The translations under genes were made by a program, and so were the position numbers. The notes beneath the pieces were generated by a model. That model was not told where the DNA came from. It made no database searches and saw only the letters and a program-made list of their open reading frames with translations. Shown here in pieces: positions 3,053 to 20,000 of a DNA stretch of 20,000 bases (position 1 is the first letter of the stretch; each line of letters begins with the position of its first letter). The DNA is from Chiloscyllium plagiosum (taxonomy: Eukaryota), in contig NC_057754.1 in assembly GCF_004010195.1 (NCBI RefSeq), forward strand, positions 11,283,996 through 11,303,995, given 5' to 3'.

Positions 3053-3302
3053 TTACATTAAATTAGATTCCCTACAGTGTGGGAACAGGCCATTCGGCCC
3101 CACAAGTCCACACCGACCCTCCGAAGAGTAACCCACCCAGTCCCATTTCCCTCTGACTAATGCACCTAACACTATGGGCAATTTAACATGGCAATTCACC
3201 TAGCCTGCACATCTTTGGACTGTGGGAGGAAACCGGAGCACCTGGGGGAAACCCACGCAGACACGGGGAGAATGTGCAAACTCCACACAGATAGTCTCCT
3301 GG
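3053..3302 (-). mobile_element. HE1-type shark SINE (V-SINE core), 5'-truncated
   Basis: The minus strand has the V-SINE core 'tgtgtggagtttgcacattctccccgtgtctgcgtgggtttcccccaggtgctccggtttcctcccacagtccaaagatgtgcagg', then a CR1-like tail 'gggccgaatggcctgttcccacactgtagggaatctaa'. The tRNA-derived head is missing. Confidence 0.88.
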
Positions 3303-3478
3303 AGACATTGCACTCCTACCCGTCCTCTCAATCATTGATATCGATTATAGATGGCTATGGCTTTAGCAGCATTTCCTCCCGACCCTCCCACTAGAGCCAC
3401 CTCCCGAAGCTGGAAATATCTATGTTCACTCTCCACCTGTCAAGGGGTGTTTGTTGGGAACAATGTAGATGGGGTATC

Positions 3479-4232: not shown

Positions 4233-6483
4233 AGAACTTCCGAAAGCTGATTGTAGGCAGATGATCGCAAGTAAAGGGACGGTTGGAAAATGGGAAGCCT
4301 TCAGAAGTGTCAGTGGGGGAGCACTTTGGGGCCAGCGACCATAATTCTATCTGTTTTAAAATAGTGAAGGAAAAGGATAGACCAGATCTAAAAGTTGAAG
4401 TTGTAATTGGAGAAAGGCCAATTTTGACGGTATTAGGCAAGAACTTTTGAAAGCTGATTGGAGGCAGATGTTCGCAGGTAAAGAGACGGCTGGAAAATGG
4501 GAAGCCTTCAGAAATTAGATAAGAAGAATCCAGAGAAAGTATATTCCTGTCAGGGTGATAGGGAAGGCTGGTAGCTATAGGGAATGCTGGATGACGAAAG
4601 AAATTGAGGGTTTGGTTAAGAAAAAGAAGGAAGCATATGTCAGGTATAGACAGGATGAATATGAATCCTTAGAAGAGTGAATCCTTAGAAGAGTATAAAG
4701 AAAGTAGGAGTATACTTAAGAGGGAAATCAGGAGGGCAAAACGGGGACATGAGATAACTTTGGCAAATAGAATTAAGGAGAATCCAAAGGGTTTTTACAA
4801 ATATATTAAAGGATATAGAAGATATAGACTGTAGGGAAATAGATGGTGACATCTTGCAAAATGTCCAGATTACAGAGGAGGAAGTGCTGGATGTATTGAA
4901 ATGGTTAAAGGTGGATAAAACCCCAGGACCTGATCAGGTGTACCCGAGAACTTTGTAGGAAGCTAGAGAAGTGATTGCTGGGCCTCTTGCTGAGATATTT
5001 GTATCATCGATAGTCACAGGAAGATTGGAGGTTGGCAAACATGGCGCCACTGTTTATGAAGGGCGGTAAAGACAAGCCAGGGAACTATAGACAGGTTAGC
5101 CTGACCCCAGTAGTGGGCAAGTTGTTGGAAGGAATCCTGAGGGACAAGATGTCCATGTATTTGGAAAGGCAAGGACTATTAGGGATAGTCAACATGGCTT
5201 TGTGCATGGGAAATCATGTCTTACAAACTTGATTGAGGTTTTTGAAGAAGTAATGAAGAATATTGATGAGGGCAAAGCAGTAGATGTGATCTATATGGAC
5301 TTCAGTAAGGTGTTCAACAAGGTTCCCATGGGAGATTGGTGAGCAAGGTTAGATCTCATGGAATACAGGGAGAACTCACCATTTGGATACAGAACTGGCT
5401 CAAAGGAAGAAGACAGAGTGTGGTGGTGGAGGGTTGTTTTTCATACTGGAGGCCTGTGACCAGTGGAGTGCCACAAGGATCAGTGCTAGGTCCTCTACTT
5501 TTTGTCATTTACATAAATGATTTGGATGTAAGCATAAGAGGTACAGTTAGTAAGTTTGAAGGTGACACCAAAATTGGAGGTGTAGTGGACAGCAAAGAGG
5601 TTACCTCAGATTACAACAGGATCTGGACCAGATGGGCCAATGGGCTGAGAAGTGGCAGATGAAGTTTAATTCAGATAAGTATGAGGTGCTGTTTTTTGGG
5701 AAAGCTAATCTTAGCAGGACTTATACACTTAATGGTAAGGTCCTAGGGATTGTTGCTGAACAAAGAGACCTTGGAGTGCAAGTTCATAGCTCCTTGAAAG
5801 TGGAGTCACAGATAAATAGGATAATGAAGAAGGCTTTGGTATGTTTTCCTTTATTGGTCAGAGTATTGAGTACAGGAGTTGGGAGGTCATGTTGCGGCTG
5901 TACAGGACATTGGTTAGGCCACTGTTGCAATATTGCATGCAATTCTGGTCTCCTTCTTATTCGAAAGATGTTGTGAAACTTGAAAGGGTTCAGAAAAGAT
6001 TTACAAAGATGTTGCCAGGGTTGAAGAATTTGAGCTACAAGGAGAGGCTGAACAGGCTGGGGCTGTTTTTTTCTGGAGCATCGGAGGTTGAGGGGTGACT
6101 TTATAGAGGTTTACAAAATTATGAGGGGCATGGATAGGATAAATAGACAAAGTATTTTCCCTGGGGTCGGGGAGTCCAGAACTAGAGGGCATCGTTTTAG
6201 GGTGAGAGGGGAAAGATATAAAAGAGATCTAAGGGGCAACTTTTTCATGCAGAGCGTGGTACGTGTATGGAATGAGCTGCCAGAGGAAGTGGTGGAGGAT
6301 GGTACAATTGCAACATTTAAGAGGCATTTGGACGGGTTTTTGAGTGGGAAGAGTTTGGAGGGATGTGGGCCGGGTGCTGGCAGCTAAGACTAGATTGGGT
6401 TGGGATATCTGGTCGGCATGGACAGGTTGGACCAAAGCGTCTGTTTCCATGCTGTATACCTCTATGACTCTATGACTCTATGA
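4233..6483 (+). mobile_element. CR1 LINE 3' half (end of APE, RT, C-terminus, 3'UTR, tail), disrupted
   Basis: Translates to [69 protein letters not shown] (decayed FADD), LYRTLVRPLLQYCMQFWSP and RGDFIEVYKI...VWNELP. Ends in a (ctatgact)n tail at 6462-6483. Confidence 0.95.
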
Positions 6484-8309: not shown

Positions 8310-8980
8310 CTAGGTGAACTTGTAAACCAGTCCAGGGAAACGGGAAAGCTGCAGGAAACAACTTGCATGGCAAATGCTACGTTGGCCTTCAATGCAAGAG
8401 AACTGGATTTTAGAAGTAGGGATAACTTCTTGGTACACGGTCTTGGTGAGATCAGAGGTGGATGAATTTATGCAGTGTGGATCTCCCTACTTTAGCGAGG
8501 AGATCCTTGCCATGGAGAGAATACAGCAGAAATTCACTAGGCGATGTCCCATTTGGAGAAGTTGGTTCATCTGGGCCTTGAATCAGAACAATGAGAGGCG
8601 GATCTGATTGAAACTTATTCAGTTTTAACAGGGTGGACAGGCTCGATGTAAGGAAGGTGTTTCCCTTGATGCAGGAGTCTCGAAGCAAAGGTCACAGTCT
8701 CAGGAAACTCGCTCGGCCATTTCAAACAGAGATAGGGAGAAGTTTCTTCACTCAATGGGTCGGCAACCTATGGAATTCTCTCCAACAGAAGGTTGTGGAG
8801 GTCAAGTCACTTAATATAATCTGGAAAGGGACTGCGCATGCTTTTAGAGGTTAAAGACATAACAGGTATGGAGAGAATATGGAAATATGGCACCGGCATA
8901 GAGGATCAACCATGAACTTTTAGAACGGGGGAACATGCTGAAAGGGCTGAATGGCTTATTGATGCTCGTGGTTTCTATGC
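8310..8980 (+). mobile_element. Old CR1 LINE 3' fragment
   Basis: Translates to ANATLAFNARELDFRS, LAMERIQQKFTR and DRLDVRKVFPLMQESRSKGHSLR...FFTQWVGNLWNSL. 3'UTR end 'aagggctgaatggcttattgatgctcgtggtttctatg'. Confidence 0.85.
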
Positions 8981-9639: not shown

Positions 9640-9960
9640 AGGTGGTACCAAAATTAGGAAGGGGCAAATTTTTGTAGGAGCACAACATTTTGGAAGAGTG
9701 TAAAGTAGGGAGTAATATTTTGAAGAGCAAAAATGTGGTAGCACAAATTTGTAAGGCAATATTTTCAGGATTAAAAAATTGGAGAGGAGAGCAATAATTG
9801 ATATATACAAATGGGTGGCACAAATTTGGGAGACACACAATATTGAGTGACAGGAATTTGTGGGGCAGATATTATGTGTGAATATTTGAGGGACAGAAAT
9901 TCAGGGGCAAATTGAATGGGAAATATTTGAAGGGAAAATTTGGGTAAATTGGAAAGACTT
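9640..9960 (+). repeat. Degenerate minisatellite, unit approximately gggca(c)aaatttg
   Basis: Recurring variants: ggggcaaatttttg, ggtagcacaaatttg, ggtggcacaaatttggg, ggggcagatatt, ggggcaaattg, gggaaatatttg, gggaaaatttggg. Confidence 0.7.
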
Positions 9961-10197
9961 GAAAAAAAGGAAAGGAGAGACAGGGGACGATAAAAAGAGA
10001 CAGACTGAGAAAAATAGACAGTGACTACTCCCTGTACCTGGAGCACTCCTCTCCCAGGCATGGAGCTAACTAAGAGGCCTTCTTGTGAGATTAAAGGCGG
10101 GGTGGGTGGGGGGTGAGGGTGGAATAGGTGTAACAGAAAGGCTCAGCTGAACAGTTCACTCTAATTGCTCCCGTCTGTGCCTCCCTCCCTCCCTCCT

Positions 10198-10327
10198 CTC
10201 ATTCCTGAAGAAGGGCCTGTGCCCGAAACGTCGAATCTCCTGTTCCCTGGATGCTGCCTGACCTGCTGTGCTGTTCCAGCAATAAAGTTTCAACTTTGAT
10301 CTCCAGCATCTGCAGACCTCACTTTCT
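10198..10327 (+). mobile_element. Short Penelope-like terminal repeat carrying a hammerhead motif
   Basis: Contains a hammerhead core, has a second copy at 15559-15652, and is flanked by cctccctcct at 10188-10197 and 10328-10337 (possible TSD, but low complexity). Confidence 0.7.
10201..10236 (+). ncRNA. Minimal type I hammerhead ribozyme motif with intact core
   Basis: attc-CTGAAGA-a-gggc ctgt gccc-GAAA-cg-TC-gaat. Stem I is attc/gaat, stem II is gggc/gccc, stem III is the palindrome ACGT, and the GUC cleavage triplet is at 10230-10232. Confidence 0.8.
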
Positions 10328-10347
10328 CCTCCCTCCTTGACCCGCTC

Positions 10348-10386
10348 ATTCACTCACTCACTGACGCGCGCGCGCACACACACACG
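10348..10386. repeat. (TCAC)n then (CG)n(CA)n compound microsatellite
   Basis: ttcactcactcactgacgcgcgcgcgcacacacacac. Confidence 0.8.
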
Positions 10387-10759
10387 ACTGAAAGCACAAC
10401 CATTTGTGTTAATAGCAGTCAAATTTACACCTTCTAGCTGTTTATAAAATCATAAAAGCCATGGACTGGATGAATAGGACAACGCATTCTTTCCTCCTGT
10501 CAATTTTCCAAAGCAATTCTATCTTCCTGCCTTCCACTTCATAAGTACTCTAAACGACTTTTTAACGTCTCCCATATCAAGAAAAAAGAAGCATAATTAA
10601 GAAAAGATTGTTTCATTTCTTTTTTTTTTAAACAAGTCATAACATCATTAACATGAGAAATATAGGCCAGTATCCATAGGGTATACATTACAAAGTAATT
10701 TTGCATACATATTGGTTACATTGGACCGTACCAGTTGCACCTTATCTATACATTTTCCG

Positions 10760-12118
10760 TTAAACCTCTGATAACACATCTCCGATAACGTTTTTAGGAC
10801 CCACAACGGGACAACCTGGAATTTGAAAACCCATAACATACGACTCCAATTAAATAATGTCATATATCTGATTTTAAATCTTTCCAAAAAAGTGTGTTGT
10901 GGTCCATGTACAAAACTGTCTCTGATGCATTGTTCGTAACATAAACATTAAGGCATTGTAAGGCTAGTATTAAACTTCATAATTTTTTTCTGGTGGATTG
11001 AAATTTTCTCTGGTTGATATTGAGTTTCTTTAAAAAAAATAACAAATTGTGCTTTTAATTTCGCTATCACTCTCCTGCGTCTAAAGCTCCAAGCCCTACA
11101 TCGTTAGGGTCGATAGCAACTTTAAAAGGTTTGAAGACATTTGATGTGGCTCAAGCTGGTGTGGCGGTTAACATGGCTTTTAGATTCTCAAATGTCTCCT
11201 GTAATTATTCTGGCCATTGAAATTTCGTGCTCTTCTTTTGAAAATTCATCAAGGGCGCCGCCACTCTCCTAAAGCTTAGTACAAATTTCTGATAGAATCC
11301 ACTCAGTTCCAAAAAGTGAACAACCTCTTGCTTCGAGGATGCTCTTGAAAATTCCTCGATGGCCATCATCTTCATGTTCCTCAGGGTCATTTTCCTATGT
11401 CCAATGGTGTCATCCAACAATATCACCTCTGCCTTCGTGAATTCCATTTATGCTCCAGATATAACCAGATTTGCCTCCCCGAGGTCTTTCAAAGTGCTCC
11501 GCCAAATGCAGCATGTGATAATTCTATGAATGACTAAAGATCACTAAGTAGACGGCTCAAATAGTTAGTAAAATTTGTCAAACAACTCTATTCATCTGTG
11601 TTTGGAATGTGGCAGGTTCGATCTTCATTCCACTTTAATTTTATATCGCCCATTTCGGGTTACAAATGCAGAATCTTCTTTCATGCTCTCAGACGGAGTT
11701 ATTTGCCAGTAACCTGCCAGTAACCACGCAGTAAATCCAACATTGCGAAGTAAGTGGCGTACCTTACATTTACTACACAGTCCTCCAGTTGTGAAATTGG
11801 CTATGAGTCTGATTTACTTCTGGCATTGACCTTCCGATAATCCACACAGAATCTTTGAGTATCATCAGGCTTCAGAACCAACATGACCCGTGAATACCGC
11901 TCATTTGGATTGGTTGGATGATGTCTTCTTGAAGCGTTGCTTCCAATTCTTTCTATACCTGTGCTGCTTTGAGAGGATTAAGCCTATAGGGATGTTGCTT
12001 TCTCCAAACAACATTCCTTACATCAACCTCAAATACAATTCTTTTAGTCCTCACCAATCTTTTACTACACATGTCCTCATATTGCTGCAACAAGCCTTTC
12101 AAATTGGTTTTCTGTTGG
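10760..12118 (-). mobile_element. Decayed Ty3/Gypsy LTR retrotransposon pol (RT plus RNase H), probably Gmr1-like
   Basis: Minus strand translates to KQHPYRLNP, KPDDTQRFCVDYRKVNA, LDLLRGYWQ, FLELSGFYQKFVLSFRRVAAPL, PFKVAIDPNDVGLGA, TVLYMDH and a final VIGDVLSEV* (ADALSR equivalent) with the stop at 10760-10762. Many stops and frameshifts. Confidence 0.9.
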
Positions 12119-13145
12119 AGTCATATAATCATTGAATCACAGAGTCCTACAGAATGGAGACAGGCCCTTTGGCCCAAACTATTCCATGCTGACCAAAATG
12201 TCCACCTACGCTAACTCCATTTCCACGCACTTGGCCATATCCTTCTAAATCTTTCTTGTTCATATATTTGTCGAAATTTGGTTTAACTGCTGTTTATATA
12301 CCTGCCTTAAACACTTCCACTAGCAACTGATTCCATATGTGTTACAGCCTCTGTATAAGAAAGTTGCCCCTCAGGTATCCTTTTACACTTACCCCTCTAA
12401 ACTTAAACTGATGCCCTCTAGTCCGTGATTCCCTAACTCTGAGAAAATGAGAGTGCATTCATCCTATCGATGCCCTTCATGGTCTTACACATTTTTTATA
12501 AGATCCCCCCTCAGTCTCCCAGACTCTAAAGAAGAAAAGGTCTTAGCTAGTCGACCCTCTCCCTATAACTCATACGATTCAGCCCTGGCAACACTCATGT
12601 AAATTTCTTCTGCATTCTTTCCAGTTTAATAACATCCTTCCTAGAGCAAGATGATCAAAACTTAACACAAATCTCCAAGTGCAGCCTCACCAACGACCTG
12701 TATAACTGCAGTATTCACTGAGGACTTCACCCATCTCCTGCGGTTCTACACATACATGCCCACTTACCACTTTGGATTCTCAAAGAAGCCTATCCCGTGC
12801 CCCATTTTCACCTTCCTGATTTCCTTCTTCAGTAAACTCCTGTATCCCCGATATACTGCCAGAGATTTCTTTGATCCCAGCTGCCCGTTCCTCATCCATG
12901 GCTCCTTCTTTTCCTGGTCAAAGTCTCAATATCTCTTGTCATAAAGGGTTCCTTATTCCTGCCAATCTTACCCTTCACCCGCACAGGAATATATAGATCT
13001 TGAACTCTAGCTATCCCACCAAAAAGACCTCCCATTTGTCGGAAGTTCATTTGCCTGTAAACAAACTACTCCAATCAATCCTTGCAAGCTCCTATGCAGT
13101 TCCATCAAAATTCGCCTTGCCCAGGTTAGAACCTGAACCTGTGAA
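12119..13145 (-). mobile_element. CR1 LINE fragment with the RT core deleted, 3' tail abutting the Gypsy remnant
   Basis: 13145-12711 translates to VLNLGKANFDG...IDWSSLFTGK...IPVRVKGK...ENPK...CVEPQEMGEVLSEY. It joins directly at about 12710 to LQLYRSLVRLHLE, then the 3'UTR and a degenerate tail at about 12119-12148. Confidence 0.85.
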
Positions 13146-14086: not shown

Positions 14087-14482
14087 GATGAAGGGGGAAA
14101 CTTATACATTTCCTTAAGATCATGATAGGTATGGATAGGTTGAATGCACTCAGTCTTTTCCCCAGGATTGGAGAATCAAAGACTATAGGTCATTGGTTCA
14201 TAATTTAGAGGGGTAAGAATAAAATGAGTCCTAAGGGGCTACCTTTTTACACAGAAGGTAGTACATATATGGAGTAAGCTGCCAGCAGAAGTGGTTGAGG
14301 TAGTTACACTAACAACATTTAAAAGGCATTTGGACAAATACATGGATAGGAAAGGCTTAGAATGACAGGTCAAATTCATGAAAATGGGGTTAGTGTTGAT
14401 GGACATTTAGTTCAGCACAGAATAGTTTGAGCCAAAGCGCCTGTCTCCGTGCTATAGGATTAGAGTCCTTATGTCTCTATGA
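14087..14482 (+). mobile_element. CR1 LINE 3' end fragment
   Basis: Collinear with about 6088-6483 (for example 'caacatttaaaaggcatttggac' and 'ccaaagcgcctgtctccgtgct'), ending in tail remnant 'tatgtctctatga'. Confidence 0.88.
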
Positions 14483-15062: not shown

Positions 15063-15223
15063 AAGAATCACACAACACTAGGGTATAGTCCAACGGATGT
15101 ATTTGGAAACACTAGCGTTTGGGGTGCTGCTTCTTCATCAACCACCTGATGAAGGAGCAATGCTCCAAAAGCTAGTGCTTCCAAATAAATTTGTTGGGCT
15201 AGAACCTGGTGTTGTGAAATTTT
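15063..15223. mobile_element. Palindromic element made of two inverted hammerhead-bearing arms (Penelope-like terminal repeat derivative)
   Basis: Arms 15064-15140 and 15147-15223 are reverse complements (17 mismatches in 77 by hand count) around the 6-nt spacer accacc. Confidence 0.75.
15143..15177 (+). ncRNA. Minimal type I hammerhead motif with one core mutation (GAAA to AAAA)
   Basis: cac-CTGATGA-a-ggagc aat gctcc-aAAA-gc-TA-gtg. Stem I is cac/gtg, stem II is ggagc/gctcc, stem III is the palindrome AGCT. The catalytic G12 is lost, so this copy is probably inactive. Confidence 0.6.
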
Positions 15224-15558: not shown

Positions 15559-15652
15559 GTCCTAAAGAAGGGCTTATGCCCGAAATGTCGATTCTCCTGC
15601 TCCTTTGATGCTGCCAGACCTGCTGCGCTTTTCAAGCAACACATTTTTGAGC
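15559..15652 (+). mobile_element. Second copy of the 10198-10327 hammerhead repeat, with decayed core and 14-bp TSD
   Basis: cctaaagaagggcttatgcccgaaatgtcgattctcctgctcc..., flanked by taacaagcccaaag (15545-15558) and taataagcccaaag (15653-15666). Confidence 0.75.
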
Positions 15653-18249: not shown

Positions 18250-18873
18250 ATCGCTGCCCATTCATGTAGCTGTCTAGATGCACCTTAAATGACACTATCG
18301 TGCCCACTTCTACCACCTCAACTAGCAACGCATTGCAGGACTCAACACCCCCTGCATTAAGAATTTTCTATGCATATCTCCCTTAAACTTTTCCCCTCTC
18401 ACCTTGAACTCGTGACCCCTAGTTATTGAGACGCCCATACTGGGCAAATGTTTCTTGCGATCCATCCTGTCTATGTCACTCAATCTCCGTCTTTCCAATG
18501 AAACGATCCTGATCTACTCACCTCTATTCATGGCTAGCGCCCTCCATTACAGGCAACATCCTGGTGAACCTCCGCTGCACCCACTCCAAAGCATCCACAT
18601 TCTTTTGCTAATATGGTGATCAGAACTGCACACAGTATTCCAAAATGTGGCCAAACCAAAGTCCTATACAACCGCAATATGACCTGGCAACTCTTGAGGT
18701 CAATACCCCATCAGAAGAAGGAAAGCATGTCATATGCCTTCTTAACCACTCAAGAGACCAGCGTTGCCACCTCCAGGGTACAATGGACCTGAAAACCCAG
18801 ATCCCTCTGTACATCAATTTTCCCCAGGGATTTTCCATTTACTGTATCATTTGCTCTGCAATATAACTTCCCA
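18250..18873 (-). mobile_element. Older CR1 ORF2 C-terminal fragment lacking the 3'UTR
   Basis: Translates to GHILEYCVQF and LVEVVEVGTIVSFKVHLDSYMNG. Collinear with about 5700-6350. Confidence 0.88.
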
Positions 18874-18874
18874 A

Positions 18875-19096
18875 CACATAGACTAAATTCCCCGACTGAT
18901 GAAGGTCAACGTCCCAAAATACTTCTTCACTGCCCTGTCGACATATGACTCCACTTTTAAAGAACCATGCACCTGCCCTCCAAGGTCCCTGTATTCCACG
19001 ACACTCCTTAAGGCTCTACCATTCATCATGAAATTCCTTCCTTGATTTGACTTTCCAAAATGCAAGACCTCACATTTATCTATATAAACTCCATTT
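18875..19096 (-). mobile_element. Separate CR1 RT-end fragment
   Basis: HFGKSNQGRNFMMNGRALRSVVEYRDLGGQVHGSLKVESYVDRAVKKYFGTLTFISRGI. Confidence 0.88.
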
Positions 19097-20000
19097 AGTC
19101 ACAGAGTCATAGAGATGTACAGCATGGAAACAGACTCTTTGGTACAACCCGTCCATGCCGACCAGATATCCAAACCCAAACTAGTCCTACCTGCCAGCAC
19201 CTGGCCCATACCCTCCAAATCCTTCCTATTCATATACGCATCCAAATGCCTATTAAAATGTTGCAATTGTACCAGCCGCCACTACATCCTCTGGCAGCTC
19301 ATGCCATACACGTACCACCCTCTGCATGAAAACGTTGCCCCTTAGGTCTCTTTTATATCTTTCCCCTCTCACCCTAAACCTATGTCCTCTAGTTCTGGAC
19401 TCCCCGACCCCATGGAAAAGACTTTGTCTATCTATCCTATCCATGCCCCTCAAAATTTTGTAAACCTCTATAAGGTCATCCCTCAGCCTCTGACGCTCCA
19501 GGGAAAACAGCCCCAGCCTATTCAGCCTCTCCCTGTAGCTCAGATCCTCCAACTCTGGCAACATCCTTGGGGGTCTTTACTGAACCCTTTCAAGTTTCAC
19601 AACATCTTTGTAATAGGAAGGAGACCAGAATTGCATGCAATATTCCAACAGTGGCCTAACCAATGTCCTGTACAGCTGCAATCTGACCTCCTAACTCCTG
19701 TACTCAATACTCTGACCAATAAAGGAAAGCCTTCTTCACTATCCTATCTACCTGTGACTCCACTTTCAAGGAGCTATGAACCTGCACTCCAAGGTCTCTT
19801 TGTTCAGCATCACTCCCTACACCTTACCATTAAGCGTATAAGTCCTGGTAAGATTTGCTTTCCCAAAATACAGCACCTCGCATTTATCTGAACTAAACTC
19901 CATCTGCCACTTTTCAGCCCATTGGCCCATCTGGTCCGGATCCTGTTGTAATCTGAGGTAACCCTCTTCGCTGTCCACTACACCTCCAATTTTGGTGTCA
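19097..20000 (-). mobile_element. Younger CR1 LINE 3' part (continues beyond the window), same family as 4233-6483
   Basis: Reverse complement of about 5563-6483, with MLPELEDLSYRERLNRLGLFSLERQRLRDDLIEVYKI. Tail 'agtcacagagtcatagag' at about 19097-19114. Confidence 0.95.

Follow-up and report, generated by a model that had tools for sequence, protein, structure and literature searches.

The window analysed here, a stretch of 20,000 nucleotides from the shark Chiloscyllium plagiosum, carries at 10201-10236 a short motif resembling the minimal type I hammerhead ribozyme (min-HHR), and this raises the question of which kind of element brought the motif there and whether it could still cut RNA at this site. 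We consider it likely that it is the min-HHR of the pseudo-LTRs of Penelope-like elements (PLEs), contained in a young, 5′-truncated terminal piece and most probably carried along as a silent passenger.

The hammerhead motif

When read directly, 10201-10236 carries the layout of a min-HHR on the plus strand, with boxes, stems, palindrome and cleavage triplet in type I order. The 5′ strand of helix I, AUUC (10201-10204; seen in the sequence, with RNAfold and with a descriptor), is followed by the catalytic box CUGAAGA, C3 to A9 (10205-10211; sequence and descriptor), by an extra A between positions 9 and 10.1 (10212), and by helix II (10213-10224), in which the four pairs of GGGC (10213-10216) with GCCC (10221-10224) enclose a 4-nt loop and the closing pair G10.1-C11.1 is formed by G10213 and C10224. 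The sequence continues with the GAAA box, G12 to A15.1 (10225-10228), the self-complementary ACGU (10228-10231), the GUC triplet (10230-10232) with a putative cut, by hammerhead numbering, after C10232, and the 3′ strand of helix I, GAAU (10233-10236). According to a dimer model and to the part of PMC4209133 consulted, ACGU would form helix III only between two copies. The boxes, the 4-bp stems, GUC, the palindrome and the extra A are all as claimed in a preliminary description of the locus. The extra A10212 is no oddity and is typical of the PLE min-HHR, for which the same part of that paper gives the consensus CUGANGAH. Judged by its letters, the motif has every sequence feature by which a PLE min-HHR is recognised, the extra A included.

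A descriptor built from the published min-HHR consensus finds exactly one site when both strands of the window are scanned, and 5,000 dinucleotide shuffles contain no such site. When relaxed to allow one mismatch it finds six sites in the window; three of these, at 10205, 15146 and 15562, are copies of the motif in which the downstream layout is complete. The MFE structure of the 36-mer consists of helix I and helix II at an unremarkable folding energy of -7.1 kcal/mol (z -0.81, RNAfold), and helix II reaches pair probabilities of 0.93-0.96 when the unit is folded alone. The check with Rfam and Infernal that the preliminary description had proposed gave no hammerhead match at E ≤ 5 in the window or at E ≤ 10 in 10100-10400. 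The hammerhead families of Rfam have the catalytic boxes and the cleavage triplet in common with the motif, but no Rfam model scores it, and the Infernal check therefore fails for the min-HHR class. That the resemblance to a hammerhead arose by chance is extremely improbable: the missing Rfam match and the low z-score would fit such an origin, but the empty shuffles, the agreement with the published consensus and the occurrence in the window of a second repeat family having the same layout with different stems argue strongly against it.

Four of the 24 listed sequencing runs were aligned to 9951-10550 at 82% likeness, and the reads and contigs recovered in this way show how the motif varies among its relatives; one of the runs, X22, contributed no reads and is no test. 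The differences listed within the motif lie at N7 (10209, A or T), in the letters of the helix II loop, at C11.1, where C is replaced by T in 1-13% of relatives with retention of a G-U pair, and at 10235; core changes, likely at CpGs, are possible beyond these listed variants. At 10235, T is found in 68% of relatives in the DNA run X5, in 75% in the RNA run X21 and in 80% in run X15, and would leave a U-U mismatch in helix I. The 4-bp stem I of the preliminary description is present in this copy, with A10235 as a minority letter, but the perfect helix is a minority variant of the family, the T being found in 68-80% of relatives.

The repeat unit and its relatives

The motif stands at the start of a 133-nt solo repeat copy on the plus strand, 10198-10330, which we take for a 5′-truncated terminal piece of Penelope type. 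The edges of the unit are marked by loose ends at 10198/10201 and at 10328-10331 in the aligned runs. In X5, 43,868 contigs were aligned, 5,068 of them at ≥99%, and the summed depth, which is not a copy number, is 4.6 on the flank but 10^6-10^7 across 10191-10330. The repeat family is thus very abundant, and this depth step together with a second copy at 15560-15647 bears out the earlier claim that the motif lies in a short interspersed repeat. The second copy is the nearest one of the same family, lies on the plus strand 5.4 kb away and is 83% alike over 88 nt (BLAST within the window). Its core is broken by the changes G5 to A and C15.2 to U, and its 3′ end is shorter, ending about 40 nt earlier than that of the 10198-10330 copy, a difference for which the read data are confounded by subfamily divergence at 10281-10299. 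An imperfect head-to-head inverted pair at 15071-15216 belongs to the second family mentioned above, as judged from the four copies in the window. Its members share the min-HHR layout, differ from the 10198-10330 family in helix II, helix I and palindrome, and have their two first boxes 4 nt apart at the centre. Both are decayed: in the plus copy G12 has become A, and decay has gone further in the minus copy.

Downstream of the hammerhead, the MFE structure contains a predicted branched stem-loop at 10249-10311 on the plus strand (z -0.60 for 10190-10330), which may possibly be a region for binding or initiation by the reverse transcriptase. The unit also contains an AATAAA hexamer at 10281-10286, which could serve as a plus-strand poly(A) signal. 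About 75% of the X21 reads that span 10283 have another letter there, so the hexamer is specific to a subfamily. At the loose end at 10328, 175 X21 reads continue into a common sequence (agreement 0.87) in which AATAAA occurs as well, and this is probably one expressed transcript from elsewhere with a copy of the family in its 3′ end.

Among the relatives, head-to-tail joints run from 10328 to 10201 and from 10329 to 10197, with the copies 20-32 letters apart. Contigs of this kind contain natural tandem pairs, which would be the best substrates on which to assay cleavage of a dimer. They would also fit an origin of the unit as an isolated monomer of a non-LTR retrozyme spreading via circular RNA cut from tandem arrays, and hammerhead tandem repeats are reported from one chondrichthyan genome in the portion of a preprint available to us (10.64898/2026.07.22.740005). 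We nevertheless regard this origin as quite unlikely. There is no tandem array at the 10198-10330 locus, the length of the unit falls short of the 150-450 bp that are usual, its motif is a minimal one as in PLEs, and the copies begin upstream of the cut site and not at it. No circular joint of 10232 to 10233 occurs among the rows listed, for which the poly(A) library is unsuited. The preliminary description had called the unit retrozyme-derived. A solitary 133-nt unit does not sit well with that label, non-LTR retrozymes being tandem repeats of roughly 150-450 bp in the sections of PMC7229834 consulted.

All four copies in the window, in two families, begin 0-7 nt before the first catalytic box, and the joints of the relatives likewise cluster at 10197-10202. 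These starting points would suit an alternative in which the ~130-nt unit is a self-contained, non-autonomous mini-element, a SINE-like PLE derivative that is copied as such. In its uncut state the hammerhead fold would then mark the 5′ end or bind the PLE protein, with no nuclease role, and the RNA source would be stubs begetting stubs instead of truncations of a full PLE. The plentiful RNA of the family on both strands (3,051 X21 reads) also fits, as does the finding, in the part of PMC11167929 consulted, that the PLE protein in vitro requires no more than a short region surrounding and following the hammerhead. On the other hand, longer relatives exist, with 188 RNA reads sharing one upstream consensus before 10198 (agreement 0.77, possibly from one locus), loose ends are bound to occur at 10198, where this copy stops, and four copies are too few. 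We therefore treat all parts of this alternative, the unit copied as such, the fold without a nuclease role and the stubs as RNA source, as possible though rather doubtful. Its stronger form, in which a ~130-nt Penelope mini-element that is still mobile starts exactly at helix I, is copied from uncut RNA and presents the fold to the Penelope protein as a handle or a stop signal, seems to us unlikely. Expression of that protein could then switch on latent cut sites across host introns and UTRs, given how very many copies have transcripts from both strands. If a mini-element of this kind were real, its polymorphic young copies would offer a direct test of the purpose of PLE hammerheads.

Insertion age and a putative empty site

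The age of the 10198-10330 insertion, which we prefer to read as a truncated PLE terminus, can be approached through an X5 contig (record 9; 3,826 nt, depth 4.6) that matches 9951-10188 and 10392-10550. This contig comes from a sample with the same species label and has 6 other letters in 397 aligned bases (1.5%) relative to the flank in the window. Where the window has 203 letters the contig has 37, so that ~166 nt are missing, the whole element included; the empty site is one contig, compared by coordinates, and it adjoins a masked microsatellite at 10340-10391. The element is bordered by a candidate 7-bp target-site duplication (10191-10197 and 10331-10337), whose left copy lies inside a (CTCC)n tract, and this low complexity makes the assignment weak. 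Element and duplication together amount to 140 nt of the ~166 nt, and the leftover 26 nt may reflect a change in microsatellite length.

In the 10198-10330 copy, all three CpGs are unmutated in a window with a CpG o/e of 0.35, while each of the other three copies has core changes. Together with the empty site and the candidate duplication this suggests a young, polymorphic insertion, although a subsequent loss of sequence between two CTCC tracts would explain the empty site equally well. We propose that the 133-nt piece was recently inserted into the (CTCC)n tract and that the hammerhead would be intact because the insertion is young, and not through selection at this site. A polymorphic young copy would mean that activity of the family is ongoing or recent and that an intact driver element should be findable.

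Cleavage and transcription at this locus

As a monomer, this hammerhead would lack helix III, and cleavage would require a second copy or PLE protein. In the double hammerhead that we envisage, the strands would swap at ACGU, with each core made up of the boxes of one copy and the cut site of the other, and C10232 would be cut by the core of its partner and not by its own. The available part of PMC4209133 describes no detectable cleavage for a single min-HHR and low activity for dimers and trimers, and the parts of PMC11167929 consulted describe an anole PLE hammerhead that cleaves only with PLE protein and is dispensable for insertion. The preliminary view of the motif as a minimal type I hammerhead of Penelope type, for which a partner is expected to be necessary, is supported. 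Its further suggestion that cleavage after C10232 might occur here finds little to build on, since the cut would be made by the core of a partner and no intact partner copy was found in the window.

In the dimer model, all 20 pairs of the homodimer are Watson-Crick, whereas two of the 20 fail when 10201-10236 is combined with the copy at 15560. The target fold of the homodimer reaches -13.1 kcal/mol, against -14.2 for two monomers and -18.3 for the co-fold MFE, and so is the least stable of the three. In an in-silico tandem the pair probability of helix III stays below 0.01, so that the cis double hammerhead is predicted to be rare; nearest-neighbour folding ignores the non-canonical contacts of the core and may underrate the active fold. 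In the natural flank, competition from a G-rich tract upstream lowers the pair probability of helix I to 0.02-0.07 at 37 °C. This tract, at 10097-10205, is able to pair with C-rich sequence at the point of insertion.

Transcription was assessed with X21, a single-cell poly(A) run of which about 2 in 100 were read. It yielded 3,051 reads, including 178 at ≥99%; they fall on both strands, and the repeat family is thus transcribed in both directions. On the unique left flank, 9951-10190, RNA depth in X21 is zero, which is a weak test of transcription at the locus, and no pile-up of X21 read ends is seen at any place, in a library type that is poor at showing ribozyme ends. It could be argued that the copy is active in its host, C10232 being cut within a transcript by trans-pairing with a transcribed relative or with the help of PLE protein, to the effect that host RNA is altered. 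The intact core, the better-paired minority helix I, the transcription of relatives on both strands and the fully Watson-Crick homodimer all speak for it. We hold it to be highly unlikely, given the silent flank in that small part of one run, the energetic disadvantage of the target dimer and the competition of the G-rich flank for helix I, to which may be added that only 1 of 9 Xenopus retrozyme dimers was cleaved in vitro in the part of a preprint consulted. We infer that this copy is inactive at its locus.

Other repeats in the window

Several further repeats surround the unit. Two broken LINE copies, 5014-6477 (plus strand) and 19097-20000 (minus strand), are 89% alike over 917 nt and are presumably of CR1 type; the former contains an RVT_1 match at 5309-5659. 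More LINE fragments lie at 8326-8854, 12121-12710, 14115-14459 and 18615-19094. A search with the LINE reverse-transcriptase fragment gave 1,627 matches, and among the 120 listed no cartilaginous fish appears by name. A GDSL-esterase-like fragment is seen at 1657-2139 on the minus strand (E 8e-7, below cut-off), and a domain of this kind occurs in ORF1 of some CR1-group LINEs. The translation of 11205-11447 (minus strand) has no Pfam match and resembles what we take to be the decayed C-terminus of a Ty3/Gypsy-type reverse transcriptase, and 3100-3400 (plus strand) is, we assume, probably a SINE copy resembling the V-SINEs of vertebrates.

Probable Penelope origin

A PLE origin of the 10198-10330 unit is what we infer from the type of motif together with the anatomy of the insertions. 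All four hallmark traits named in the part of PMC4209133 consulted that a single copy can display are present or partly seen, namely the extra nucleotide, G10.1-C11.1, the palindrome at 15.2-16.2 and loops that vary within the family. According to the portion of PMC8557442 available, truncation at the 5′ end, partial tandem arrangement and fusion with an inverted copy are frequent in PLE insertions, and a tail of 30-40 bp may be present. The same 5′-truncated, inverted and partially tandem anatomy is found here, with opposite-strand and go-back joints among the relatives (4 of the 15 joints listed are opposite-strand joints at 10200/10201) and with the inverted pair at 15071-15216. We propose that a PLE reverse transcriptase with GIY-YIG endonuclease, acting in trans, probably copied the 133-nt piece from uncut RNA. 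The copies in the window begin upstream of the cut site, which fits uncut RNA as the template, the situation found for the anole PLE (PMC11167929), and the start of this copy at helix I may be taken as a genomic hint of such a template. The product at 10198-10330 would then most likely be a silent passenger.

No driver was found in the window itself. None of its 93 frames of at least 62 aa matched GIY-YIG in Pfam, and the Pfam matches to reverse transcriptase all lie in a fragment of LINE type, 5100-5659. When two reading frames of the unit were compared as peptides with longer proteins, no match emerged, which is weak evidence. The DNA patterns of the motif have 0 matches among metagenome and viral contigs, and plasmids gave no match either. 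A 19-mer from the 3′ part occurs at 86 loci (48 metagenome, 38 prokaryote), none of which extends over more than 28 nt on the element, and we ascribe these matches to chance. The same applies to a zf-CDGSH match on a reverse frame (E 0.003, below cut-off). A scan for bacterial promoters and terminators found nothing and is irrelevant to this host.

Comparison with known systems

The literature search found no paper devoted to shark PLE hammerheads, subscription papers lying mostly outside its reach, and there is no chondrichthyan row in the part of the 2014 min-HHR alignment examined (PMC4209133). Min-HHRs as a kind have been known since 2014, and the combination of a hammerhead with Penelope has already been described in other animals. 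What hammerheads do in PLEs that bear an endonuclease is an open question in the parts of PMC8557442 and PMC11167929 consulted, to which the single copy described here adds little.

Non-LTR retrozymes resemble the unit in having a type I hammerhead in a non-coding repeat, and solo monomers of them occur (PMC7229834 and 10.64898/2026.07.22.740005, in the portions available). They are mostly equipped with canonical hammerheads, and they are defined by tandem units and circular RNA, whereas here the 133-nt unit is solitary, its motif is minimal and no circle is seen. A PLE origin has been proposed for non-LTR retrozymes themselves in the parts of both sources seen.

The min-HHRs of PLEs, as far as the consulted part of PMC4209133 describes them, agree with the motif in CUGANGAH, G10.1-C11.1, GAAA, the C-G palindrome and UH, and in a short helix I (2-5 bp, 4 bp here) without helix III in the monomer. 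Rows from fish, lamprey and Xenopus in that source have the same C G U C ending. The 4 bp of helix II are at the short end by comparison with the 7-8 bp of the Schistosoma min-HHR, and no reading frame is linked to the unit here. PLE min-HHRs are found in that source mostly as single scattered copies, with some pairs on opposite strands. The inverted pair at 15071-15216 corresponds to the inverted, 5′-truncated arrangement described for PLE insertions in the available part of PMC8557442.

The last system to be compared is Poseidon PAc of Anolis carolinensis, as described in the sections of PMC11167929 consulted. Its ORF begins at helix II, whereas no such frame is confirmed in the unit, and protein-assisted cleavage has been measured for PAc but would apply to the motif here only by analogy. 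PAc copies occur with and without the last 30-40 nt, to which the earlier 3′ end of the copy at 15560 may correspond. In PAc, as here, no RNA-seq ends are seen at the cut site, and the hammerhead is followed by the 3′ end of the element ~100 nt later.
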